A stretch of DNA of 20,000 bases from an uncultured virus (IMG/VR IMGVR_UViG_3300022555_000049) (taxonomy: Duplodnaviria; Heunggongvirae; Uroviricota; Caudoviricetes), in the IMG/VR virus record IMGVR_UViG_3300022555_000049, one strand, 5' to 3'. The notes under the pieces were generated by a model that was not told where the DNA came from, did no database searches, and saw nothing but the letters and a program-made list of their open reading frames with translations. The position numbers and the translations under genes were made by a program. Shown here piece by piece: positions 917-18,793 of this stretch (positions are counted from its first letter, which is position 1; each line of letters begins with the position of its first letter).

Positions 917-1105
917 TTACAAAAGTTTCTTACTATTGTCAATAACATACAGTAAACTTATGTAACAGTATGTTGCAGAAACAATAACTATAAAGGTAAC
1001 TAACTTCCCAAAAGCTATTATGCTCACATCGTAAAGATATAGATAAAAGAACGTAGCCAAGCTAAAGAATAATACACTAACTAATAATACTAAGAATGTT
1101 TTCAT
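917..1105 (-). CDS. small two-TM membrane protein, 62 aa
   Basis: Two long hydrophobic stretches; ATG start; directly downstream of the sigma gene. Confidence 0.65.
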   Translation of the reverse strand: MKTFLVLLVSVLFFSLATFFYLYLYDVSIIAFGKLVTFIVIVSATYCYISLLYVIDNSKKLL

Positions 1106-2722: not shown

Positions 2723-2752
2723 AAAAAGGTTACAGAAATGTAACCTTTTTTT
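2723..2752 (+). terminator. intrinsic (potentially bidirectional) terminator
   Basis: AAAAAGGTTACA-GAAA-TGTAACCTTTTT(TT): perfect 12-bp inverted repeat, GNRA tetraloop, T7 tract, 14 nt after the stop codon. Confidence 0.8.
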
Positions 2753-2904
2753 ATGTCCATACCTATTATTCATATCCATTCTAAATAACAAGTAGTCAAT
2801 CAGTTAAACCTTTTCTTTGCCCATTTTAAGGCGATTTAAGCTACCCTATTCTGATGTGGATGCCCAATATCATTCTCTAATTATCTTATCCCTATGCCTT
2901 CCTT

Positions 2905-2995
2905 TAGTACCCTACCACCCCGTATCCCCCGCTATCCCCCACGGGTAGGACACCTCCCTCTGGGGCTGTCGGTGCTGCCCTTGTATCTCCTCATA
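2905..2995. other. non-coding GC-rich island with G-quadruplex motif on - strand
   Basis: Minus strand 2940-2910: GGGGG-ATAGC-GGGGG-ATAC-GGGG-TGGTA-GGG; TATCCCCC twice; sits in a ~440-nt ORF-free gap of an AT-rich genome. Confidence 0.7.
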
Positions 2996-3146
2996 AAGTT
3001 CACAAATTTCCCAAAAAAAATTTTTATTTCCTAAATAATCGCTTTAATTAAATTTTATAAAAACCTGAGATTCAATGAGTTATGTAAAAATTCGGTCTTA
3101 TAATTATTTTCAAAAAATTTTAAGATTATCTTAAATAGTTATTAAT

Positions 3147-4460
3147 TTACAACCCAGAATTAATTCTACTTAACTCGATATCTAACTCCCATTCCATAAT
3201 ATTATTTAAATAATCGTTGTTTGTTATACGAATTATATTAATGTTATTATCTTTGCAATAATTATTTTTAATTTCGTCATGTTTTTTTCTTTTAATTAGT
3301 CCCTCTTCGCCTCCGAATTTTTTAACTGCTTTATAATGTTGAACACCATCAAACTCAACAATGGTATTATAGTCGGGAAGGAAAAAATCAAAAGGAAGTT
3401 TGTTTATGTTTTTACAGTCGTCAAATTTTTTCTGCCAGATATAATTAATATTTTTTCTTATTAAATAAGTTTTAATTCTTATTTCACCATGAGACATAAT
3501 TTCATCTGGGTCTGTTCCAAAGAAATCGAAATGGCTTACCCACATTTTATAAAACCTATGAGGGTTACTAGGCAATTCCGTTTGTTGAGTTCTTTTATAC
3601 CATTTTTTATATTCTCTAAATGATTTAATTTCGAGTTTTAACATTTTTAATTTTGCTTCTTCGTAGGATAAATAATTTTCACAATTTCCTTTTTCTGAAA
3701 TGATTTTGATATTTTTAGATAATGAGCCATTAATTATTGTATCTGCAGTAACTAAAATTTCTTTATTTGTTAATTTGTTATATAATTTAACCTTAATTTT
3801 ATCTGGGTTATGGTTATCAATTATTCCATTAAATTTATATAAGTTTGAATATTCATTTTTAATAATTTCGGATATTTTTTTATTAATTAATATTCTCGCA
3901 TTAACAATTACGTTATTATTATATTCCTTTAGACATGTTTTACAAATATAGGTAGTGTCCAATTTTTTATAATCATTTCTTTGTATATTTGTATTTGTTA
4001 AATGTTTTTTACAAAAGAAATTAACATGTGTGTCTGTTAAGGTAATATCGTAATCATCTGAAATTTTCTTCAATCTATTAATTAAACTTGTATTATTAAT
4101 TTCTTTTTGTTTTTCTATGTTACAAGTTGGACAACCTTGTGATGAATTTCTAGTTTTCCCAACCAAGACGTTACCGTGGGTTTCACAGGTATAATAATTA
4201 TGATTGTTTATTAATATTATTTTATTCTCTGGTTTGGGAGAACATTTTGGACATTTACTGCCTCCTTTTTGATGGTTTGAGATTCTATTAATAATAAATC
4301 TCCCGTGGGTTTTACAAATAGCATGAAACGGTTTATTTATGTTAATATAAGAATCTTCATCGTACTCATATTCGTTATTATGAATAATTCTCAAATTTTC
4401 AAATAATTGTTTTTTTATTTCTTTAAGATATTCTTCCCTGTTTTTTAAATAACTTCCCAT
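3147..4460 (-). CDS. putative homing endonuclease: CxxH/CxxC zinc-ribbon repeats + integrase-repeat-like unit + C-terminal Vsr/DUF559-like PD-(D/E)xK nuclease
   Basis: CKTHG..CPKC, CETHG..CPTC, CKKH..CKTC; LSYEEAK...IKSFREYKKW...LPSNPHRFYKMW; MSHGE...LPFDFFLPDYNTIVEFDGVQHY...HDEIKNNYC...IIRI. Confidence 0.8.
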   Translation of the reverse strand: MGSYLKNREEYLKEIKKQLFENLRIIHNNEYEYDEDSYININKPFHAICKTHGRFIINRISNHQKGGSKCPKCSPKPENKIILINNHNYYTCETHGNVLVGKTRNSSQGCPTCNIEKQKEINNTSLINRLKKISDDYDITLTDTHVNFFCKKHLTNTNIQRNDYKKLDTTYICKTCLKEYNNNVIVNARILINKKISEIIKNEYSNLYKFNGIIDNHNPDKIKVKLYNKLTNKEILVTADTIINGSLSKNIKIISEKGNCENYLSYEEAKLKMLKLEIKSFREYKKWYKRTQQTELPSNPHRFYKMWVSHFDFFGTDPDEIMSHGEIRIKTYLIRKNINYIWQKKFDDCKNINKLPFDFFLPDYNTIVEFDGVQHYKAVKKFGGEEGLIKRKKHDEIKNNYCKDNNINIIRITNNDYLNNIMEWELDIELSRINSGL

Positions 4461-5322: not shown

Positions 5323-5340
5323 TGATACATCATAAAGCTA

Positions 5341-5934
5341 ATGGATAAAGTACAAAAACAATTAATTGACACATATTTTCGCAAGAGAAAGATTGCTAAT
5401 GAGCAGGAATATCAATATGGATATAGACATTATGAAATAATATATTTTATGAAAAATAACATACCTATTGAGAGAGATAAATATACTGATAATAGCATTG
5501 CTGATTTATTATTATATCATCCAGAATATTTTAGTATGTTTGATTTGTCAAAATTGAATTCCTCACAAATTGAGTATTTATTAGTTGAACAACCAACATT
5601 GATTGATAAGTTAGATTTGTCTAAATTATATGGTTCACAAATAAGGAATCTTTTAATTAAAAATCCTTCATGGATTGATAGATTTACTGAATATTTGGAT
5701 GAACTTTCAAGTGAAAACATTGAAGATATTATAGATGCGCATCCTTTGTTAGCAAACAAACTTCCGTTAATCAGTCTTAATGGTGACAGCATTGCAAACA
5801 TTTTAAGTGGAAATCCTGATATTATTAAATATTTCACTAATAATCAGTTAATGGATGAACTTAGTAGAGAAAATATAAAAGATATTTTAACATTTGAACC
5901 TCAATTAGCAAAATACTTTAAAGGTAGAATATAA
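5341..5934 (+). CDS. helical-repeat protein, tandem paralog 1 (197 aa)
   Basis: N-terminus MDKVQKQLIDTYFRKRKIA; ~22-aa repeats DLSKLxxxQIxxLLxxxPxLIDK. Confidence 0.85.
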   Translation: MDKVQKQLIDTYFRKRKIANEQEYQYGYRHYEIIYFMKNNIPIERDKYTDNSIADLLLYHPEYFSMFDLSKLNSSQIEYLLVEQPTLIDKLDLSKLYGSQIRNLLIKNPSWIDRFTEYLDELSSENIEDIIDAHPLLANKLPLISLNGDSIANILSGNPDIIKYFTNNQLMDELSRENIKDILTFEPQLAKYFKGRI

Positions 5935-6240
5935 ATGGATAAAGCACAAAAACAATTAATTGATACATATTTTCGCAAGAGAGATATTGCAAGTGAGCAA
6001 AGTGAATTGTATTGGTATGTAGAATATGAGGTAATTTATTTTATAACTAATAAGATAGATTTTGATGATACAAAAATTACTGGAGATATAATCGCTAATA
6101 TAATTATAATTCATCCAGATTTAATTGGGTATTTTGATTTGAAAAAACTTAGTGGAAACAACATTGGGAATATTTTAGAATTTCACCCAATACTTATAAG
6201 ATATTTGAAAAAGATAATAGATTCACACAATGAGTATTAA
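5935..6240 (+). CDS. helical-repeat protein, tandem paralog 2 (101 aa)
   Basis: N-terminus MDKAQKQLIDTYFRKRDIA; only ~2 repeats; abuts the stop codon of paralog 1. Confidence 0.85.
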   Translation: MDKAQKQLIDTYFRKRDIASEQSELYWYVEYEVIYFITNKIDFDDTKITGDIIANIIIIHPDLIGYFDLKKLSGNNIGNILEFHPILIRYLKKIIDSHNEY

Positions 6241-6251
6241 AATTTAGTTAT

Positions 6252-6905
6252 ATGGATAAAGTACAAAAACAGTTAATTGATACATATTTTCGTAAGAGGA
6301 ATATCGCCAATAACCAAGATACTCAATATGAATTTGAGTCATATGAGATATTGTATTTTATTAATAACAATATTCCATTTGATTTATCAACTCTTAGTAG
6401 TAATACCATTGCTGGTATATTGGTAAAGCAACCATCATTAATTAATGAGTTTGATTTATCTAAACTTTCGTATTATCAAATTACATTCATTTTAAAACAT
6501 CAACCACAATTATTTGATTATTTTGATATATCGAAATTTGATGGATACAATATTGCAGACTTATTAATTGCACAACCATTATTAATTGATAAGGTAAATT
6601 TAAGTATACTTAATGATGAAAACATTACAGATATTTTAGTTGCGCAGCCTGAATTAATCAATAAATTTGATTTTATTATAAAATCAAATTGGCTTGTTGC
6701 AAATATATTAATAAAACAACCATCATTAATAAATTATTTTGATTTGTCAAAATTTGAAAATTATCAAATTGCATATATTATAGAAAATCAGCCAACATTG
6801 ATTAATAAAATTGATTTATCAAGACTTAACGGTGAATATATATCACGCATATTATTGAAGCAACCTGAATTAGCAAAATATTTTAACAATAGAAATAATG
6901 GATAA
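6252..6905 (+). CDS. helical-repeat protein, tandem paralog 3 (217 aa)
   Basis: N-terminus MDKVQKQLIDTYFRKRNIA; ~8 repeats FDLSKxxxYxIxxILxxQPxLIN. Confidence 0.85.
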   Translation: MDKVQKQLIDTYFRKRNIANNQDTQYEFESYEILYFINNNIPFDLSTLSSNTIAGILVKQPSLINEFDLSKLSYYQITFILKHQPQLFDYFDISKFDGYNIADLLIAQPLLIDKVNLSILNDENITDILVAQPELINKFDFIIKSNWLVANILIKQPSLINYFDLSKFENYQIAYIIENQPTLINKIDLSRLNGEYISRILLKQPELAKYFNNRNNG

Positions 6906-7295
6906 ATCACAAAAACAATTAATTATTTTTCTTCACGAAGATTTAGTAATGGATTAACCAGATATTTAATTGCGGATCACCCTGAACTTGTTAGTAGTTT
7001 AAATATAACTAATTTAGATGGGGGATCAATTTCAAAATCATTAATAGAGAATCCAGAACTAATCAATTATTTTAATGATAAGATTCTTAGTAAGATGGAT
7101 ATGATAGAAATTGGAAATATATTGAGATTACGTAAGGAATTATCTCCCCAATTAAAAAAATATAGTATTACTGAAACAATCATTGATTATCCAGAATATA
7201 TAGACAAATATGATTTAAGCATTTTAGATCAGAACAACATAAATAAAATCATAAATGCACATCCAGAATTAGCACCATACTTCAAAGAAAAATAA
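6898..7295 (+). pseudogene. helical-repeat protein, tandem paralog 4, frameshifted/internally deleted
   Basis: ATG 6898 gives MDKSQKQLI then loses frame. Another frame is open from 6906 to 7295 with the same repeats (YLIADHPELVSSLNITNLDGGSISKSLIENPELINYF...YDLSILDQNNINKIINAHPELAPYF), of which the track reports only 7095..7295. Confidence 0.75.
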
Positions 7296-7296
7296 T

Positions 7297-7306
7297 AGTA
7301 TTTATA
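7297..7306 (+). promoter_or_regulatory. AGTATTTATA putative late promoter motif
   Basis: 13 nt upstream of ATG 7320; the same motif precedes several other genes. Confidence 0.55.
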
Positions 7307-11961: not shown

Positions 11962-12864
11962 TTATTTTTCTAGTTGTTTTTCCAAGATTTTTGCCATTTC
12001 ATATAATTTATGTACCAAAGAATTTTCATAAATTTTTTCAACGATAGTATTTCCATACATTTCTTCAATTGATGATTCTCCGTACATTTCCAAAACTTTT
12101 GATTCTTCGTTCATATAATTAATTCTTGATTTATCAAACATTTTTTGAACAATAGCATATTTCCACATTTCTTCAATTGCCGAATGTTCGTGCATTTCAA
12201 AAACTTTTGACATATGATTTAATTTATCTGCTTGTGACATGTTATGCATTTCCTCAATATTTGCATCGCCTTTAAGTACAACAATACGTGAATGGTCATG
12301 CATTTCGAATATCTTTGCTCTTTCAAACATTTTCATTACTTTGGTGTAGTTAAACATTTTATTTATTGATGAAAAACCGCCCATCTCAAGAACTTTCGTA
12401 CTGTCACGCATTTCACCAATATTTGCATTATCTGTCATAATATAAACCTCAGAATTATTATCAAAGACTTTTATTTTAGATTTATTATACATAGCAAATA
12501 CAACTGAATTTTTCACTTCTTCAATAATCGCATTGTTAGTTAGAATTGCCCCTTCGTGTAATAATATTGTTTTACGCCCTTTAATTATCATCGATGAAAT
12601 AATGTTTTGTAATTTAGAAATAATATTTATCTCAAATTCTCCTTTATACCAATTCGGTATATAAATTTCATTAATATATAAAGTATAGTTATTAACATCA
12701 TCAAGTCTATCTTTTGGGAGAAATGTTGCTTTAAAATAAGAATCTTTCTTATCACCAAACGAGATATATTTGCCAATTAAATCTTTATGAGATGTGGCAA
12801 ATACATCATGAATAATATCACCATTATTTTTTATTAGTACCAAATAAAAATTTTCCATAATCAT
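11962..12864 (-). CDS. 11-residue repeat (beta-helix-like) protein
   Basis: About 17-18 units of xMxxxSx(I/V)xE periodicity (EMRDSTKVLEMGGFSSINKMFNYTKVMKMFERAKIFEMHDHSRI...). Likely start at 12864/12858, downstream of AGTATTTAT at 12878-12886 (track start 12915). Confidence 0.8.
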   Translation of the reverse strand: MIMENFYLVLIKNNGDIIHDVFATSHKDLIGKYISFGDKKDSYFKATFLPKDRLDDVNNYTLYINEIYIPNWYKGEFEINIISKLQNIISSMIIKGRKTILLHEGAILTNNAIIEEVKNSVVFAMYNKSKIKVFDNNSEVYIMTDNANIGEMRDSTKVLEMGGFSSINKMFNYTKVMKMFERAKIFEMHDHSRIVVLKGDANIEEMHNMSQADKLNHMSKVFEMHEHSAIEEMWKYAIVQKMFDKSRINYMNEESKVLEMYGESSIEEMYGNTIVEKIYENSLVHKLYEMAKILEKQLEK

Positions 12865-12919
12865 AAGTGTTTCCTGAATAAATACTATTTGTTTAATATA
12901 AAATTTATTCACCAAAGTA

Positions 12920-14780: not shown

Positions 14781-15188
14781 AGAAAGTGGCAATTTATCTG
14801 CCCCTTTTCTTTTATGTACATATTCATTAATAAATCCACATTCCTTATCATAATCATTTGTACATATTGCAATATCATCAAGAAATGACTGATAATTATT
14901 CCTATAGTGATTGATAAAGCCATCAACTTCTTTTGTAATATCTTCTTCATCTTTAAGAATACCTTTTTCAAACAATCTTTTTATTGCAACAACAGTCCAA
15001 CTACTTAAATCAGCACCTAAATCTTTATGATTTTCTTTAATATATTTAATTACAATATCAGTTGTATATATTATATATGGTGCTAAATGTTTCTTATCTA
15101 TAGTTTCCAATAATGAAGAATATCTTACATATAATTCATTCATCTTATCTACTTCAATACCATTTACTTTATTTGTTAAATCTGTCAT
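14772..15188 (-). CDS. hypothetical protein, 138 aa
   Basis: Overlaps the end of the GMPR/IMPDH gene; co-oriented. Confidence 0.75.
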   Translation of the reverse strand: MTDLTNKVNGIEVDKMNELYVRYSSLLETIDKKHLAPYIIYTTDIVIKYIKENHKDLGADLSSWTVVAIKRLFEKGILKDEEDITKEVDGFINHYRNNYQSFLDDIAICTNDYDKECGFINEYVHKRKGADKLPLSLL

Positions 15189-16248
15189 ATGAATGCTTGG
15201 TTATTTCAATAAAGTTATTGTTACCAATAAATTCATCAAGATTATGGCTATTACTATAACTCATCGAATTTCTGAGATAGTGTTTAAAATTTTCAATCCA
15301 TCCATATATACTGTATTCTACAGGAACATATCTAACAACACCTTCAGAAGTTTTTAAAACAGTTTTACCCATTGCCTTTTGAGCACTCTTAGTGCTCATA
15401 CCTCTAAAATGTTTAACGATTTTAAATCCTTTACGATACAAGAATTTTGCTAATTTAACATTAATTTTAAGTCCATAAAAATAATTTTCACCAGAACTTT
15501 CAATTGATTTATTGAAAATAGAACCAACCATAACCATGTCTGCACCTAAATAAAATGATTTTATTATATCGGAATAATTTTTCATACCTCCATCAGCAAT
15601 AATCATTGGTGCTATTTGTTTATTTTCATTTTCGAATTTATCTTTTATCCCACGAATTTCATGAATTAAGGATGCGATTGGGTAGCCAATGCCGCTGTTT
15701 TTGGTGCTTAGGCAGGCATTCCCATTTCCTATTCCACATCTAATCATTTGAACGTCAGTGTTTTCCGCATAATACAAATATGTTTCAGGATTCCCAATAT
15801 TTCCAATCATAATTATAATGTCTGGTCTTATTTTTGTGAGTCTATTTACATAATTAACAACTTTAAGCATGTGAGCATTTGCAACATCAATTAACATATG
15901 AAACCCTCGATGTAATTTTTGTTGGAACATCCATTCGTTTTCAAAAAACTCATCCAAGTCATCAAACCCAAAACTTAAAAAAACGTTATTGTATTTGTTT
16001 CTGTTTCTACAAGTAAATAAAAATTCGTTAAATTCATCAATTTTTATTGTTCTTGGTAAACAAACCATAATGCCGTTATCGATATAGTCATCAATATTAT
16101 TAAGATTCACAACAGTATCCATTGGTGCAGTGAAAAGTGGTAATATTTCTGGTAAGGCAATATCTTTGTATCTGCTGGTAATATCACTAATTTTTGATGG
16201 GACAATTAATATGTCATCAAAATCGAATTTTGTGTTTAAATTATTCAT
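15169..16248 (-). CDS. guaC: GMP reductase / IMP dehydrogenase family protein (no CBS domains; closer to GMP reductase)
   Basis: FDFDDILIVP, APMDTV, IDVANAH, catalytic GIGNGNAC, IIADGG, FRGMST, TSEG, LRNSMSY; lacks the IMPDH GMGS and RY flap motifs. Confidence 0.8.
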   Translation of the reverse strand: MNNLNTKFDFDDILIVPSKISDITSRYKDIALPEILPLFTAPMDTVVNLNNIDDYIDNGIMVCLPRTIKIDEFNEFLFTCRNRNKYNNVFLSFGFDDLDEFFENEWMFQQKLHRGFHMLIDVANAHMLKVVNYVNRLTKIRPDIIIMIGNIGNPETYLYYAENTDVQMIRCGIGNGNACLSTKNSGIGYPIASLIHEIRGIKDKFENENKQIAPMIIADGGMKNYSDIIKSFYLGADMVMVGSIFNKSIESSGENYFYGLKINVKLAKFLYRKGFKIVKHFRGMSTKSAQKAMGKTVLKTSEGVVRYVPVEYSIYGWIENFKHYLRNSMSYSNSHNLDEFIGNNNFIEITKHSYDRFNK

Positions 16249-16262
16249 GTGTTTTATTTAAA

Positions 16263-16421
16263 AAGTGTGTGTTTGCAATTAATTATAAATATCGAAATTG
16301 AGTTTTAACTCTTGATTCTTAAGTCTTTAAGTCATGAATTCAGGATTTTTGAACATTCTAATCTCTATCGTTTTGTCCGTAAAGGAAATAATATTTACAT
16401 TAATAGTCAAACAACACACTT
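16263..16421 (-). ncRNA. putative structured ncRNA: long terminal stem enclosing heptamer repeat array
   Basis: Arms 16391-16421 and 16263-16292 are complementary over ~27 bp (AAGTGTGT(T)GTTTG..ATTAAT..TAAATAT). The interior has 8-9 units of ~AGAnTYA. It starts 5 nt after the stop of the DIP1984-like gene. Confidence 0.65.
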
Positions 16422-16426
16422 CTATG

Positions 16427-16876
16427 TTATTCTACATCCCAAGGAATATCGGTTGTGTAGTTATATGTATCAATTTCTTCTTGGAGTGCATCTACTTTTG
16501 TTTGTAATGCTTTAACCATTTCGTTACGTAGACTTTCGTCAACCTGAACCTTATATTCTCTGAGTGTGTCACTATATCCCTTAGATTCCATTCCCTCAAC
16601 AACGCTCACCTCATTCCAAAAAGCGATAAGTGCTTTATTCTCAGAAAGAACATAAATTTTTGATTGAATTTCGCTATTGGCTTCGTTAATTGCGAATTTT
16701 AACCCAACAAGATTGTTAATTTTTTCTTGGAGTTCTGAGTACAATTTATTCACGTCAAATTTTTCTCCGTTGAGTGAGCCAATCAAATAAGAATTTTTTT
16801 CTTTGATTTGTTGTTTTAGTTTGGTAATTTCTCCAACTAAACCTTTTCTTAGTTTTAATGCTTTGTATAATTTCAT
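16427..16876 (-). CDS. DIP1984/septicolysin-like (DUF6847-type) coiled-coil protein
   Basis: N-terminal MKLYKALKLRKGL and C-terminal ALQEEIDTYNYTTDI match the family pattern MKLAEAL..R..L / ...IQ..NW.TEL; central LKFAINEAN. Confidence 0.75.
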   Translation of the reverse strand: MKLYKALKLRKGLVGEITKLKQQIKEKNSYLIGSLNGEKFDVNKLYSELQEKINNLVGLKFAINEANSEIQSKIYVLSENKALIAFWNEVSVVEGMESKGYSDTLREYKVQVDESLRNEMVKALQTKVDALQEEIDTYNYTTDIPWDVE

Positions 16877-16896
16877 GATAATTTATTTTTAGATTA

Positions 16897-16928
16897 CAAA
16901 TATAAATATTTATTTTTAATAATGCAAG
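16897..16928 (-). promoter_or_regulatory. Bacteroidota housekeeping-sigma promoter for the DIP1984-like gene + ncRNA
   Basis: TTG-N20-TATATTTG, 20 nt before ATG 16876. Confidence 0.72.
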
Positions 16929-16929
16929 A

Positions 16930-17799
16930 TTAAATATTGGTTTTAATCCTGAAATCAACAGACCATCCATATGGCATGTATTCGGGTTGCATTGTATTAA
17001 TAAAATGATTTCTCCATAGCTTTACAAAATCTATGATCTTTTCTTCGGTATCTAATTTTTGTATAACATAATAACCATGCTCGTACATATACCTATTTTC
17101 ACCTTTAAATTGTTGGGTGTTTGTAATATGTTCATCGGTTAATAGTAAATATAATTTATATAGTTGAATATAATTGAGATTAATCAGTGTGTTATAAGGA
17201 AGATTACTATTTTCTGAAATATAAACCAATTTGTTTATTTTCACCTCTTCAGGCATCTTATTATAATTTCTAAATAATGAGTGGATGTTATTCAATAGTA
17301 ATGACCCATCCTTGCCGTTTTCACGCAGTTTAGCAGTATAATCAATGTTGAGTTCGCTTATTGTTTTAACATCGTAAATTCGGGCTATTTCGTCCTTATA
17401 TTCATTAGCCATTTGTTCATATTCAGAATGCTTTTTATCGTTAATTAAAACAACATCATGATGATTTTTTGATTTAAACTTTTCTGGAAAAAATTGTCTG
17501 TAACAATATGGAACAATATGATGACGTTGTAAGTGGGTTTTAATTCCACTCACAACGCATCTAGATTCTCTCATTCCTCGACCAAATTCTTCATTATCCT
17601 CAAAACCGTTGCCTTTGGGTTCAAAATTGAATTGAATTTGTTTACTACCAGTTATGGTCGCTAAATTTTTATCCAAATACCAATTAGCTTTTTTTTCGCC
17701 ACAGGTAAACATATGTCTCCCACTTGGATGATAAACTTTCCAATTTTCAGAATTCAAATTTTTACTCCCAACGTTTAAAATATTATTTAGACTACCCAT
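16930..17799 (-). CDS. HNH-like protein homologous to the C-terminal domain of EXD2
   Basis: ENWKVYHPSGRHMFTCGEKKANWYLDKNLA, CVVSG, RHHIVPYCYRQFFPEKFKSKNHHDVVLI, HGYYV, FVKLWRNHFINTMQPEYMPYGWSV; likely start MGSL at 17799 (track 17811). Confidence 0.8.
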   Translation of the reverse strand: MGSLNNILNVGSKNLNSENWKVYHPSGRHMFTCGEKKANWYLDKNLATITGSKQIQFNFEPKGNGFEDNEEFGRGMRESRCVVSGIKTHLQRHHIVPYCYRQFFPEKFKSKNHHDVVLINDKKHSEYEQMANEYKDEIARIYDVKTISELNIDYTAKLRENGKDGSLLLNNIHSLFRNYNKMPEEVKINKLVYISENSNLPYNTLINLNYIQLYKLYLLLTDEHITNTQQFKGENRYMYEHGYYVIQKLDTEEKIIDFVKLWRNHFINTMQPEYMPYGWSVDFRIKTNI

Positions 17800-18793
17800 T
17801 ATAAATTTCAAAAAAACGATTATGAATCTGCATATATGTTGACCTTAAAATAAAATTATCATATTCTTCACCAAGTGCAGATTTAAATTTACCAATAGCA
17901 ATACCTAATTCTTTGCCTTGTAAGTTTGGAAGCCATGACATAACGATATCCCCGTTGAACTTTTGTGAGATAACATTATTAAGTCTATCTTTTTCCTTTA
18001 AAACATATAACTTATTCATTAAATCTGCTTCAGGAAAAAACTTGTTAATAGCATCAAGATAATTATCTTTATTTTTATCAAAAGGATATTCTTTAACAAT
18101 ATTATTTTCTGTCAAATATTCCAAAAATTTGTGATATGAACCACGTTTACGATTTCTTTTTCTATCGAGATGTTTAAGATTTTCAATTTTAAACATTTCT
18201 GAGTCAAAATATTTGCTATCAATCGTAAATTTAAGAATATCCTCAAGAGTTTCAAACCCTTTCAAATATCTATCATAGTCATAACCACCAAATTCAAATA
18301 TTTTTCTCGCATCAGTAGATAATAAAATGTCTGCAGAATTATTTCCATTAAAGTTTCTGAATTTATAGAACAAACCTTCCCATCCATATGATAAACCAAA
18401 TTTATGATAGGTTTTTCCAGCAATATTGCATAGCGGATCGAATGAAAAATATGTTTTTGCAATTTCCCAGTTACTTGCTTTTATTGGAATGAAATCAATT
18501 TGGAAATCTTTATAATCAAATGAGTGTACATTACCGTTTGAATAAACGGCTTTAGGATTAAATGCTGTTTTGATATACTCATTCCAATTGATGTTGTTTG
18601 TATTGGCATCAATTTTAATTAACAAATCTAAATCGCCGTGATCTGCTTTTGTATAATAACATTTAATAACTTCACTGTATAATCCCAAATCAAGAAATGC
18701 TTTAACGCCAATTTCATAACCAATTTGATTGAATTCTTCTGTGTTCTTTCTTTTCGTAAAAACACCGTACTTGTTTAATGCTTTGCCTCCCAT
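17792..18793 (-). CDS. Pol-beta superfamily nucleotidyltransferase
   Basis: KADHGDLDLLI (GDxD) and third Asp in FQIDFI; C-terminal FNGDIVM...GKELG resembles the tail of tRNA nucleotidyltransferases. Confidence 0.75.
   Translation of the reverse strand: MGGKALNKYGVFTKRKNTEEFNQIGYEIGVKAFLDLGLYSEVIKCYYTKADHGDLDLLIKIDANTNNINWNEYIKTAFNPKAVYSNGNVHSFDYKDFQIDFIPIKASNWEIAKTYFSFDPLCNIAGKTYHKFGLSYGWEGLFYKFRNFNGNNSADILLSTDARKIFEFGGYDYDRYLKGFETLEDILKFTIDSKYFDSEMFKIENLKHLDRKRNRKRGSYHKFLEYLTENNIVKEYPFDKNKDNYLDAINKFFPEADLMNKLYVLKEKDRLNNVISQKFNGDIVMSWLPNLQGKELGIAIGKFKSALGEEYDNFILRSTYMQIHNRFFEIYNG

Follow-up and report, generated by a model that had tools for sequence, protein, structure and literature searches.

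A conserved structured RNA directly behind DUF6847/DIP1984-family genes and a candidate protein-RNA module of giant phages, plasmids and bacteria

Within a 20,000-nucleotide stretch of an uncultured Caudoviricetes genome (IMGVR_UViG_3300022555_000049, hereafter the window), a gene of the DUF6847/DIP1984 superfamily is followed by a structured RNA about 165 nt long. Comparison of related sequences shows this RNA to be real, single-copy, folded on the strand of the gene and kept with the gene family from giant phages to bacterial chromosomes; by the same comparisons, it has been retained with the family while its own sequence and its neighbours changed. The best explanation is that gene and RNA constitute a self-contained two-part module on one transcript, with the RNA directly behind the stop codon. 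We favour, at a probability of roughly 0.55, the reading that this is a cis-encoded DUF6847 gene-RNA module in which the protein binds the RNA. As the pair recurs in giant phages, plasmids and bacteria, it is probably an undescribed RNA-protein unit. No public description of the pair was found; full-text literature on DUF6847, DIP1984, PF20935, NF038048 and 3KDQ offered neither a function nor an RNA partner, and the listed literature on jumbo-phage structured RNAs and 'septicolysin' contained nothing on it.

The features of the locus, in the order of transcription, are the following.

18793-17792, minus strand: Pol X-like nucleotidyltransferase gene, 333 aa, a conserved upstream gene
17811-16930, minus strand: HNH-like protein gene, 293 aa, a conserved upstream gene (HNH_2, E 0.011)
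16897..16928, minus strand: promoter-like site, CTTG at 16928-16925 plus TATATTTG at 16904-16897, ending 21 nt before the ATG
16427..16876, minus strand: DUF6847/DIP1984-superfamily gene, 149 aa, stop codon at 16429-16427
16260..16423, minus strand: whole RNA element, comprising closing helix, head domain, heptad array and terminal U run
16390..16423, minus strand: closing helix P1, 5' strand, beginning 3-4 nt past the stop codon
16361..16369, minus strand: invariant motif GAUAGAGAU, consensus GAUAnnGAU, with invariant columns G56, A57, T58, A59 and G62 (80 sequences)
16334..16358, minus strand: conserved core GAAUGUUCAA ... AUUCAU, nearly invariant columns, possible hairpin P3 with putative pairing
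16295..16329, minus strand: five phased heptads UAAAGAC, UUAAGAA, UCAAGAG, UUAAAAC and UCAAUUU, with a conserved CUCA at the end
16261..16293, minus strand: closing helix P1, 3' strand, running into the U run at 16264-16260
15169..16248, minus strand: downstream IMPDH/GMP-reductase-like gene, its ATG 12 nt past the U run

Relatives of the module were treated as group A, 102 related loci with 80 distinct downstream sequences, and group B, 58 loci from viruses and cyanobacteria whose proteins are 23-47% identical. In 62 of 75 distinct group A upstream regions, a TAnn[T/A]TTG motif stands 14-23 nt 5' of the ATG, and the promoter-like box of the window may resemble the Bacteroidota -33/-7 consensus. 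No promoter of the RNA's own emerged within the end of the ORF, where the motif occurs in only 7 of 80 loci and at scattered positions. An earlier note on this DNA had described a promoter-like box, a gene and a stem-closed element carrying repeats; the first three stand, and the repeat count requires revision, as described below.

We observed that the two ends of the element form a long helix. The minimum free energy fold pairs 16423-16390 with 16293-16261 through 31 pairs and intervening bulges at -35.7 kcal/mol, compared with a mean of -22.0 (sd 3.1) for 200 shuffled sequences, none of which folds as well (z = -4.38); the bulged pairing of about 27 bp claimed earlier is thereby borne out. 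A run of five T occupies 16264-16260. The covariance model R1 matches 16425-16260 on the minus strand with 117.4 bits (E 9.9e-21), its sole strong match in the window. Changes on both sides were present in 10 of 11 P1 pairs in one comparison, and compensatory changes in 18 of 18 closing-stem pairs in another. Cells of P1 were paired in 86.6% of cases versus 78.6% in shuffles, a level that none of 500 shuffles attained, and controls slid along the sequence gave 38.6-67.4%. Because G-U/U-G cells outnumber A-C/C-A cells by 138 to 30, the fold is assigned to the gene's strand, in agreement with the earlier proposal of an RNA rather than a DNA stem. The P1 duplex reaches -10.7 kcal/mol or better in each of the 80 distinct downstream sequences and begins 5-7 nt past the stop codon in 62 of 80 relatives. 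Five complete phage genomes of 322-363 kb contain exactly one copy each, as does the window.

This element corresponds to no catalogued RNA among those compared. The search against Rfam that had been suggested gave no family match: the 4227 covariance models of Rfam 15 yielded zero matches at gathering score in the window and only chance-level matches at 16200-16480 (E 0.83 and 4.7), and none were found at the element in 18 related loci. Nor does it have the form of an intrinsic terminator, with a G+C-rich hairpin, a 3-8 nt loop and a U run; its A+U-rich helix encloses ~100 nt, and a terminator scan returned zero sites at the element even though the U run is present. In several group B clades, an ordinary terminator hairpin is placed after P1. 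The window RNA contains no tRNA-like arm. Taken as a whole, the element is very probably a conserved structured RNA linked to the DUF6847 gene family.

The ~100 nt of head and heptads that P1 encloses are fully or almost fully invariant in group A. The GAUAnnGAU motif is also found in distant group B RNAs, some of which carry a GC-rich, UUCG-capped hairpin at the position of P3. Within group A, helices inside the head show no compensatory changes because the columns are too conserved, so that the head fold and the single-stranded state of the heptads remain presumptive. A pseudoknot between GAGU on the 5' arm side and ACUC at the heptad end was considered and found unsupported, since 26 of 80 rows do not have GAGU and, among these, ACUCA is unchanged in 18 and the loss is compensated in none. 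A GAGUA/GAAA arrangement looks loop-E-like, a resemblance only.

The heptads themselves comprise five strict 7-nt units over 16329-16295 (TAAAGAC, TTAAGAA, TCAAGAG, TTAAAAC and TCAATTT on the DNA), which follow a U-N-A-A pattern; its U and A positions show little or no variation across 80 sequences. A lag of 7 gave the strongest self-similarity among lags 2-15 and ranked top in both groups A and B; at most 4 of 100 shuffles reached the observed periodicity score in 39 of 80 group A loci and 31 of 58 group B loci, and the periodicity was individually significant in 2 of 15 core-family loci. The heptads showed no conserved pairing and are therefore presumed to be single-stranded. Of the eight to nine heptamers, in units of 7 or 8 nt, previously counted at 16356-16299, these five survive and the remainder do not; the supposed units ATGTTCA, AAAATCC and TGAATTCA lie outside the repeat array, in the invariant core GAAUGUUCAA ... 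AUUCAU.

We explored how far the RNA follows the gene. All 80 distinct group A downstream sequences carry the element, as do 21 of 21 viral loci, and this conservation behind homologous genes, together with covariation at all 18 stem pairs, bears out the expectation in the earlier note of a stem and repeat element retained downstream. In group B, a homologous RNA with different arm sequences lies behind the gene, and cognate P1 arms pair better than non-cognate ones (median -16.1 versus -12.4 kcal/mol, p = 7e-11). The group A model matches 28 of 75 distant loci (groups B and C) at E<=1, right behind the gene and on the same strand, with nine of these at E<0.01; in a joint alignment, 9 of 9 P1 pairs covary and the A columns of the heptads stay conserved. 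Core DUF6847 genes on Acinetobacter, Enterococcus and Paracoccus plasmids are followed by another conserved element, so that core members likewise precede conserved non-coding sequence, which differs from that of the window and has little 7-nt periodicity (the 2 of 15 loci above). On the 8.7-kb Acinetobacter plasmid, the gene precedes a 320-nt gap without annotation, and cultivable carriers of family members include Paracoccus versutus and Picosynechococcus/Synechococcus strains.

Searches of wider collections gave a patchy distribution. The DUF6847 module was present in 370 plasmid records and in 27 of 301 sampled genomes of the phylum to which the cyanobacterial locus belongs, and a genome scan with a narrower alignment found 4 loci. 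A motif scan of viral contigs identified 43 loci, of which nine had arms and heptads, all nine with the gene just upstream; the other 34, having no arms, heptads or upstream gene, look like ordinary coding sequence. The exact arm pattern had 0 matches in viral contigs. When the protein was searched by tblastn against 50,697 phage records, a single match was obtained, in an uncultured 595-kb record, and these records thus include no cultured carrier phage; megablast of 15000-18000 against phage records gave no match. Sequencing runs listed as containing all or part of the stretch number 17, with no RNA run among them.

The genes around the module vary. Across 14 distinct viral loci, the nucleotidyltransferase was found in 12 and the HNH-like gene in 10, and PHROG 24943 was recorded for the conserved upstream genes. 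The 333-aa nucleotidyltransferase has no Pfam match at E<=1 and resembles Pol lambda/beta by Foldseek (E 5e-6, TM 0.35-0.47); kinship with RlaP was rejected (hhalign probability 0.3%). An RlaP gene does stand behind the RNA in 2 of 24 cyanobacterial loci, among which neighbours are otherwise unrelated. Some relatives of the module sit among tRNA genes; in 6 of 60 loci, such genes are no more than about 1.5 kb away. An RNA-repair neighbourhood is not a general feature of the loci sampled. A SAM-II riboswitch and metK flank the module in one genome. The RNA is kept in bacteria and plasmids even though the gene that follows is often unrelated or lies on the opposite strand; as the flanking genes vary, the RNA is the only constant partner of the gene. 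In at least 64 of 79 group A loci, the ATG of the GMP-reductase-like gene falls 7-40 nt (median 12) past the U run, a gap too short to hold a promoter for that gene, and this proximity makes a cis role on read-through also plausible. At L012, L013, L018, L020 and L021, where the downstream gene differs, the RNA stays with the DUF6847 gene, in line with the earlier view that it belongs to the upstream gene rather than to the GMP-reductase-like one.

We then considered the protein. The window protein gives near full-length matches below the cut-offs to Pfam PF20935/DUF6847 (24.1 bits, cut-off 27) and NCBIfam NF038048 (35.2 bits, cut-off 70). Its AlphaFold model (pLDDT 89.1) has 3kdq_A as its best PDB match by Foldseek (TM 0.83/0.81, probability 1.00, 152 aligned columns), with runners-up at TM <=0.36; 3kdq is the crystal structure of Corynebacterium diphtheriae DIP1984, a protein of unknown function. 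Although its sequence scores below both family cut-offs, the 149-aa product is thus DIP1984-like, as had been proposed, with the same fold (TM 0.83), the same length, and a shared N-terminal M-K-L-x-K-A-L-K and C-terminal Q-[DE]-E-[IL]-D-x-[FY]-N. A profile of the window clade reached 1578 representatives at E<=1e-3, linking it to core members, and a profile of diverse relatives reached cyanobacterial genes, one of which (L258) scores 168.6 bits on PF20935; the family amounts to about 1,600 clusters at 50% identity.

The predicted shape is a helical bundle that includes one beta hairpin; its N-terminal helix is basic and its C-terminal helix acidic. K2, K5, K8 and R/K10 are conserved, and residues 1-30 have a net charge of +7; the protein is acidic overall (pI 5.24 in the window, median 6.0 among 108 relatives), and the basic helix may simply pack against the acidic one. 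A symmetric homodimer is predicted (ipSAE 0.69 versus 0.00 for the best control) and a 5- to 9-mer is not, with four modelled copies forming two symmetric dimers. Among proteins with solved structures, 20 of 30 known as pairs and 1 of 23 known as single chains attained this mark, and the dimer prediction may owe its pass to the model's memory of the solved relative 3kdq. Such a dimer does not match five binding sites one to one. No recognised RNA-binding domain appears among the Pfam, NCBIfam, PADLOC and PHROG matches of the window protein, and weak matches to XaxA/alpha-xenorhabdolysin and to LmuB (PADLOC, 19.2 bits) were discarded as coiled-coil noise.

Several known systems share parts of this arrangement. 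In TRAP with the trp leader and HutP with hut mRNA, a protein oligomer reads evenly spaced short single-stranded RNA motifs, HutP reading UAG units 7 nt apart; the window RNA has comparable phased short motifs, five U-N-A-A at exact 7-nt spacing. These RNAs, however, are terminator-switching 5' leaders read by 11-mer or hexamer rings of other folds, whereas the window protein is a predicted dimer with the RNA 3' of its gene. ToxIN, a type III toxin-antitoxin system found on phages and plasmids, likewise couples a protein gene with a repeat RNA from the same locus; its class has antitoxin repeats of about 34-36 nt that precede the toxin gene, while the window module has the reverse gene order, five 7-nt units downstream and a non-nuclease fold. 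The Pfam, NCBIfam and PADLOC searches gave no match to a ToxN/CptN-type endoribonuclease. As with Ro60 (Rsr) and Y RNA/YrlA, the RNA is closed by a long end-to-end helix and encoded beside a protein, yet no TROVE domain was found in 9 window ORFs or in 56 neighbours of bacterial relatives, and the Rfam models gave no YrlA match at the element. The T4 gene 32 operator joins a folded nucleation structure to a less structured tract with several UUAAA/UAAA repeats, which the gene product binds cooperatively (PMC535899). The window module resembles it in having a folded structure adjoining a presumably less structured A/U repeat tract of its own gene. The T4 operator, however, is in the 5' leader and covers the ribosome-binding site, whereas the window element follows the gene on the 3' side; gp32 has an OB fold and binds ssDNA, and the window protein is a helical bundle with putative RNA binding.

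Other explanations of the element must be weighed against this pairing. It could be a purely cis-acting 3'-UTR, not bound by the DUF6847 protein, whose helix and U run terminate or attenuate transcription, shield the message from 3' exonucleases and set read-through. The position of the U run at once behind P1 in group A, the GMP-reductase-like ATG 7-40 nt beyond it, the acidity of the protein, and a P1 so close to the stop codon in 62 of 80 relatives that a terminating ribosome would melt it all suit such a role. We nevertheless consider it unlikely, since a terminator has no need of ~100 nt of near-invariant head and heptads, the terminator scan is empty at the element, several distant clades bear a separate canonical terminator after P1, and bacteria and plasmids keep the RNA whether the next gene is unrelated or on the opposite strand. 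Another account, in which the element is a riboswitch or attenuator leader of the GMP-reductase-like gene and unrelated to the upstream gene, draws on its place immediately ahead of the GMP-reductase-like gene, seen in the window and in no fewer than 64 of 79 group A loci; it is made very improbable by the five loci at which the element stays with the DUF6847 gene while the downstream gene differs, and by 58 distant loci and bacterial genomes in which it does likewise among unrelated neighbours.

A toxin-antitoxin-like or conflict module, in which a harmful or anti-invader protein is restrained by a same-locus repeat RNA as in type III systems, accords with the compact unit of protein and repeat RNA, with its patchy, mobile spread over phages, 370 plasmid records and 27 of 301 genomes of one phylum, and with the one insertion between a riboswitch and its gene. 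The protein, however, is a helical bundle like 3kdq and not a ToxN-like nuclease, the repeats are of 7 nt rather than about 36 nt, the RNA lies behind the gene and not ahead of it, and PADLOC offers only the weak coiled-coil LmuB match at 19.2 bits; we regard this account as improbable. Of the earlier interpretation, the conserved gene-RNA pair holds, excision by an RNase III-like enzyme and binding of one repeat per subunit are putative, and the comparison with type III systems breaks down over the order of the genes, the length of the repeats and the fold of the toxin. Finally, terminal inverted repeats of ~30 bp flanking ~100 bp could point to a feature of the DNA, such as a miniature inverted-repeat transposable element, a recombination site or a cruciform, but the element occurs once in the window and once in each of five complete genomes, it keeps a fixed orientation and a fixed distance to the stop codon, the 138:30 excess of G-U over A-C indicates that only one strand folds, and its arms covary rather than stay conserved, leaving this explanation barely credible.

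The RNA is built of a long irregular closing helix formed by both ends, a head with GAUAnnGAU, GAAUGUUCAA and AUUCAU, a heptad stretch and a U run. Under the favoured reading of a protein-binding gene-RNA module, the protein, a predicted dimer with conserved lysines on its N-terminal helix, would bind its own 3' RNA. The phased heptads would set the register of binding and the helix would provide a rigid frame, and the ribonucleoprotein could assemble in cis while the protein emerges from the ribosome. Such a particle would most likely either exert feedback on its own message, and on transcription that reads through into the gene behind it, or serve as a trans-acting RNA-protein effector of a mobile accessory module. 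More tentatively, and at somewhat less than even odds, the module may represent a widespread, mobile and hitherto undescribed class of ribonucleoprotein in which DUF6847/DIP1984 dimers sit on a 7-nt-phased single-stranded track held in an RNA frame and act in trans. Its target might then be, for example, damaged or foreign RNA in phage-host conflict, and the class would span giant phages, Acinetobacter and Enterococcus plasmids and the chromosomes of several phyla.

These results make a structured RNA from outside every catalogue the constant companion of a family with a solved structure and unknown function. DUF6847 thereby gains its first concrete functional lead, an RNA, together with a directly testable partner, and the RNA itself is a new class with an unusual phased 7-nt track. 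The two point to a portable module that free-living bacteria share with giant phages and with small plasmids that are clinically common. If the pair does prove to be a ribonucleoprotein, it would join Ro-Y RNA and type III toxin-antitoxin systems as a mobile-element protein-RNA module.

All genes surrounding the gene–RNA pair of the window lie on its minus strand, with the following features at the locus, listed 5′ to 3′ on that strand:

16928-16925 (-), promoter-like CTTG upstream of the ORF (sequence)
16904-16897 (-), promoter-like TATATTTG upstream of the ORF (sequence)
16876-16427 (-), DUF6847-like ORF of 149 aa (ORF call)
16423-16390 with 16293-16261 (-), closing stem of the RNA, 31 pairs plus bulges (MFE fold)
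16329-16295 (-), five strict 7-nt units, UAAAGAC, UUAAGAA, UCAAGAG, UUAAAAC and UCAAUUU (sequence)
16264-16260 (-), run of five T after the stem (sequence)
16248 (-), ATG of an IMPDH/GMP-reductase-like gene, 12 nt past the T run (domain matches)

Four bases separate the stop codon of the ORF from the start of the end-pairing stretch, and the fold energy of the element, −35.7 kcal/mol, was reached by none of 200 dinucleotide shuffles (mean −22.0 kcal/mol, z = −4.38). The CTTG and TATATTTG boxes resemble the Bacteroidota −33/−7 promoter consensus. The RNA has no matching Rfam family: Rfam 15 yielded no gathering-score match in the window and, at relaxed thresholds, only chance-level matches in 16200-16480. 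ARAGORN found no tRNA in the window. Full-text literature searches under the names and identifiers of the protein family (DUF6847, DIP1984, PF20935, NF038048, 3KDQ) returned nothing relevant, the matches being one unrelated plasmid-epidemiology paper and chance strings; judging from the search listing, ‘septicolysin’ on plasmids is an annotation label only.

Within the window’s clade of loci (group A), the element is conserved with the gene without exception. Each of 21 viral loci fetched by protein, on contigs of 18-357 kb, had an element of this kind behind the stop codon. A metagenome scan supplied a further 80 loci, and 102 of 104 loci, including the window and the related locus L062, gave downstream sequence, which reduced to 80 distinct sequences (of the two left out, one lacked a stop codon within the locus and one gave too little downstream sequence). 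All 80 had alignable invariant motifs and a closing duplex at least as stable as −10.7 kcal/mol, the outcome of the check for a downstream stem in homologs that the earlier note had proposed. The spacing between the stop codon and the closing helix, P1, was fixed and short (5-7 nt in 62 of 80 loci). Approached from the RNA side, a 21-base degenerate core motif matched 43 viral loci, nine of which showed arms and heptads; the same nine, and no others, had a DUF6847 ORF ending just upstream, and the remaining 34, without arms, heptads or upstream gene, looked like ordinary coding sequence. The covariance model built from the 80 sequences (R1; 170 positions, 18 pairs) matched exactly once in every one of five complete phage genomes (322-363 kb) and gave a single strong match in the window (117.4 bits). 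Because the element is single-copy in these genomes and in the window, a dispersed repeat or mobile element is ruled out.

Compensatory changes occurred in 10 of 11 predicted closing pairs of a 15-sequence alignment. In the alignment of all 80 group A RNAs (A5), every one of the 18 pairs in helices P1a (columns 5-17 with 205-216) and P1b (columns 25-32 with 192-199) showed two-sided changes, bearing out the terminal stem drawn in the earlier note. Pairing held in 86.6% of cells compared with 78.6% in shuffles, none of 500 reaching the observed value, and 38.6-67.4% in a control with partners slid by 1-3 columns. Since G-U/U-G cells (138) outnumber A-C/C-A cells (30), the sequences place the fold on the sense strand of the gene. 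These comparisons show the RNA to be a conserved, strand-specific, single-copy structured element. No covariation was visible inside the group A head because its columns are too conserved. A GAGUA / GAAA(G) internal loop interrupts the helix in most clades and is absent from the window’s own subclade; its similarity to the loop-E motif goes no further than resemblance. Pairing of GAGU with the ACUC at the heptad end in a pseudoknot was unsupported, as GAGU is absent from 26 of 80 rows, of which 18 retain ACUCA unchanged and none has a compensating change.

The 8-9 heptamers originally counted in the head reduce to the five strict units, whose U and A positions are invariant or nearly so; three of the units so counted (16356-16335) are not repeats and form part of the invariant core GAAUGUUCAA ... 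AUUCAU. Self-similarity, scored in the best 35-nt window at lags of 2-15, peaked at lag 7 and again, less strongly, at lag 14. Taken one by one, 39 of the 80 group A sequences had a lag-7 score that no more than 4 of 100 shuffles reached. Other repeats occur elsewhere in the window. A tandem array at 5332-7300 (+) comprises at least four paralogous ORFs (starts 5341, 5935, 6252 and about 6898) with common 131-nt 5′ ends at 76% identity and further repeated blocks, and imperfect repeats of 27-nt period (multiples 27, 81, 189) at 11993-12399 sit inside a 317-aa ORF, 11962-12915 (-). Near the left end, a 36-48 nt motif (GTTTTAATTGGTTTA...AAAGGTTACA) in 3-4 copies (11-28, 307-357, 848-898 and 2016-2051, all +) may serve regulation or accompany promoters.

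The RNA of more distant DUF6847 relatives (group B) is homologous to that of group A. A one-genome-per-species scan with a distant-relative profile gave four loci, the fourth with a frameshifted gene; in the other three (32-55% G+C) the stop is followed by a GC-rich closing stem, a TCAAnnn array and a CUC end. A viral scan together with 301 genomes of the cyanobacterial locus’s phylum, 27 of which have a match, yielded 58 distinct loci with proteins 23-47% identical to that of the window. Their arms are quite unlike group A in sequence and keep the pairing: cognate arms had a median of −16.1 kcal/mol compared with −12.4 for non-cognate arms (P = 7 × 10−11), with only 16 of 58 loci past the 5th percentile of the non-cognate control. 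The top lag was again 7, individually significant in 31 of 58 loci. Over 75 distant loci (groups B and C), the group A model gave 29 matches at E ≤ 1; 28 of them fell immediately past the stop codon on the strand of the gene, nine of these at E < 0.01. When 19 group A RNAs were aligned jointly with 13 from group B, in an alignment fitted to the model, all nine P1 pairs showed covariation and conservation persisted in the A columns of the heptads. Several group B clades carry an ordinary terminator hairpin behind P1 in place of the U run.

Behind core DUF6847 genes lies another conserved element of about 230-320 nt (loci L243-L260 and L261-L263). In the 15 cyanobacterial loci with such genes (group C; PF20935 score of one, L258, 168.6 bits), the element measures about 230 nt and 7-nt periodicity is scarce (2 of 15). 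Motifs of this element include GCAGGUAGC, GAGCAC/GAGUAC, UUACUACCnnGUGCUG and GAGGGnGGGAnAGGGG, with a T-arm-like GGGUUCGAnUCCC in some. Rfam had no match for the elements of either group B or group C. A core-family gene was present in 370 plasmid records, 341 of them from Acinetobacter, and in all three plasmid regions examined an unannotated gap carrying motifs of the group C element follows the gene (about 320 nt in A. baumannii and E. faecium; in P. versutus a stretch without any annotated feature):

L261:1763-2084, group C-type element on plasmid
L262:1951-2267, group C-type element on plasmid
L263:1954-2280, group C-type element on plasmid

The element thus ranges over cyanobacteria and Acinetobacter, Enterococcus and Paracoccus plasmids. 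Separately, a 478-aa frame at L258:520-1953, with DUF6847 as its last 141 residues, represents either a true fusion or an ORF called too long, and in one cyanobacterial genome (L244:25-1224) an RVT_1 reverse-transcriptase gene is convergent with the DUF6847 gene and the element behind it.

Gene order in group A is conserved: p111, Pol X-like nucleotidyltransferase, HNH-like protein, DUF6847, RNA and GMP-reductase-like gene. Outside it no neighbours are conserved, the 56 neighbours of 24 cyanobacterial loci belonging to unrelated families. Two window genes upstream of the module and conserved with it in the phage clade (16930-18793, -) encode a 293-aa protein weakly matching HNH_2 and a 333-aa protein with an N-terminal half predicted to adopt the fold of family X DNA polymerases (Pol lambda/beta); positions 19944-19318 encode a calcineurin-like phosphoesterase. 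In the deltaproteobacterial locus L150, gene and RNA stand between a riboswitch and metK, which looks like a portable unit inserted into the metK leader:

1478-1553, SAM-II (SAM_alpha) riboswitch, 43.6 bits (gathering score 36)
1767-2216, DUF6847-like gene
2219-2446, its RNA
2741-3925, metK

L150 also holds a group II intron fragment at 965-1104 (-). Of 60 loci scanned, 6 had tRNA genes within about 1.5 kb of the module, and RlaP followed the RNA in 2 of 24 cyanobacterial loci. On one phage contig (L204:16-3380) gene and RNA are embedded among 17 tRNA genes arrayed on the same strand; a cyanobacterial locus (L246:1980-2866) has eight tRNA genes ahead of the gene and RlaP (PF10127) behind the RNA.

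Assignment of the window protein by sequence is weak, with Pfam DUF6847 (PF20935) at 24.1 bits (cut-off 27), NCBIfam NF038048 (DIP1984 family) at 35.2 bits (cut-off 70), no PHROG match and a sole PADLOC match, of coiled-coil type, to LmuB. A profile search of 1.84 billion representatives returned 1578 relatives at E ≤ 10−3. The AlphaFold2 model (16 relatives as input; pLDDT 89.1), four long helices and one beta hairpin, best matched PDB entry 3kdq (TM 0.83, all others at most 0.36), a C. diphtheriae protein of unknown function. Since the sequence match is weak but the modeled fold match clear, we assign the protein as a divergent member of the DIP1984/DUF6847 superfamily. A four-copy model predicted a symmetric dimer interface (ipSAE 0.69, best control 0.00; at least 90% of contacts common to runs, partner pLDDT at least 86). 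In a calibration based on two copies, 20 of 30 proteins solved as pairs attained this mark, compared with 1 of 23 solved as single chains; the model may also remember the solved relative. Overall the protein is acidic, with a pI of 5.24 (the median of 108 relatives is 6.0), and has a basic N-terminal helix (net +7 over residues 1-30; K2, K5, K8 and R/K10 conserved) and an acidic C-terminal helix (net −7).

To judge from this anatomy, promoter box, ORF and RNA would form a single transcription unit; the box is present in 62 of 75 group A upstream regions, and a promoter motif at the ORF end is absent as a rule (present in 7 of 80 loci). The main rival to binding by the protein, and one compatible with it, is a cis role: the helix may gate read-through into the next gene, because in at least 64 of 79 group A loci, by a motif test that undercounts, the median distance from the U run to the start of that gene is 12 nt. 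Counting against binding are the overall acidity of the protein, in which no RNA-binding domain was recognized, and, against the heptads as a register, the prediction of a dimer rather than a pentamer. TRAP and HutP likewise read phased triplets. The proposed reading also resembles that of T4 gp32, which uses a folded nucleation site and UUAAA/UAAA repeats on its own message (PMC535899). The comparisons tie the RNA in evolution to one gene family, and we put at about even odds that the DUF6847-like protein would bind its own 3′ RNA, reading the phased heptads as a register.
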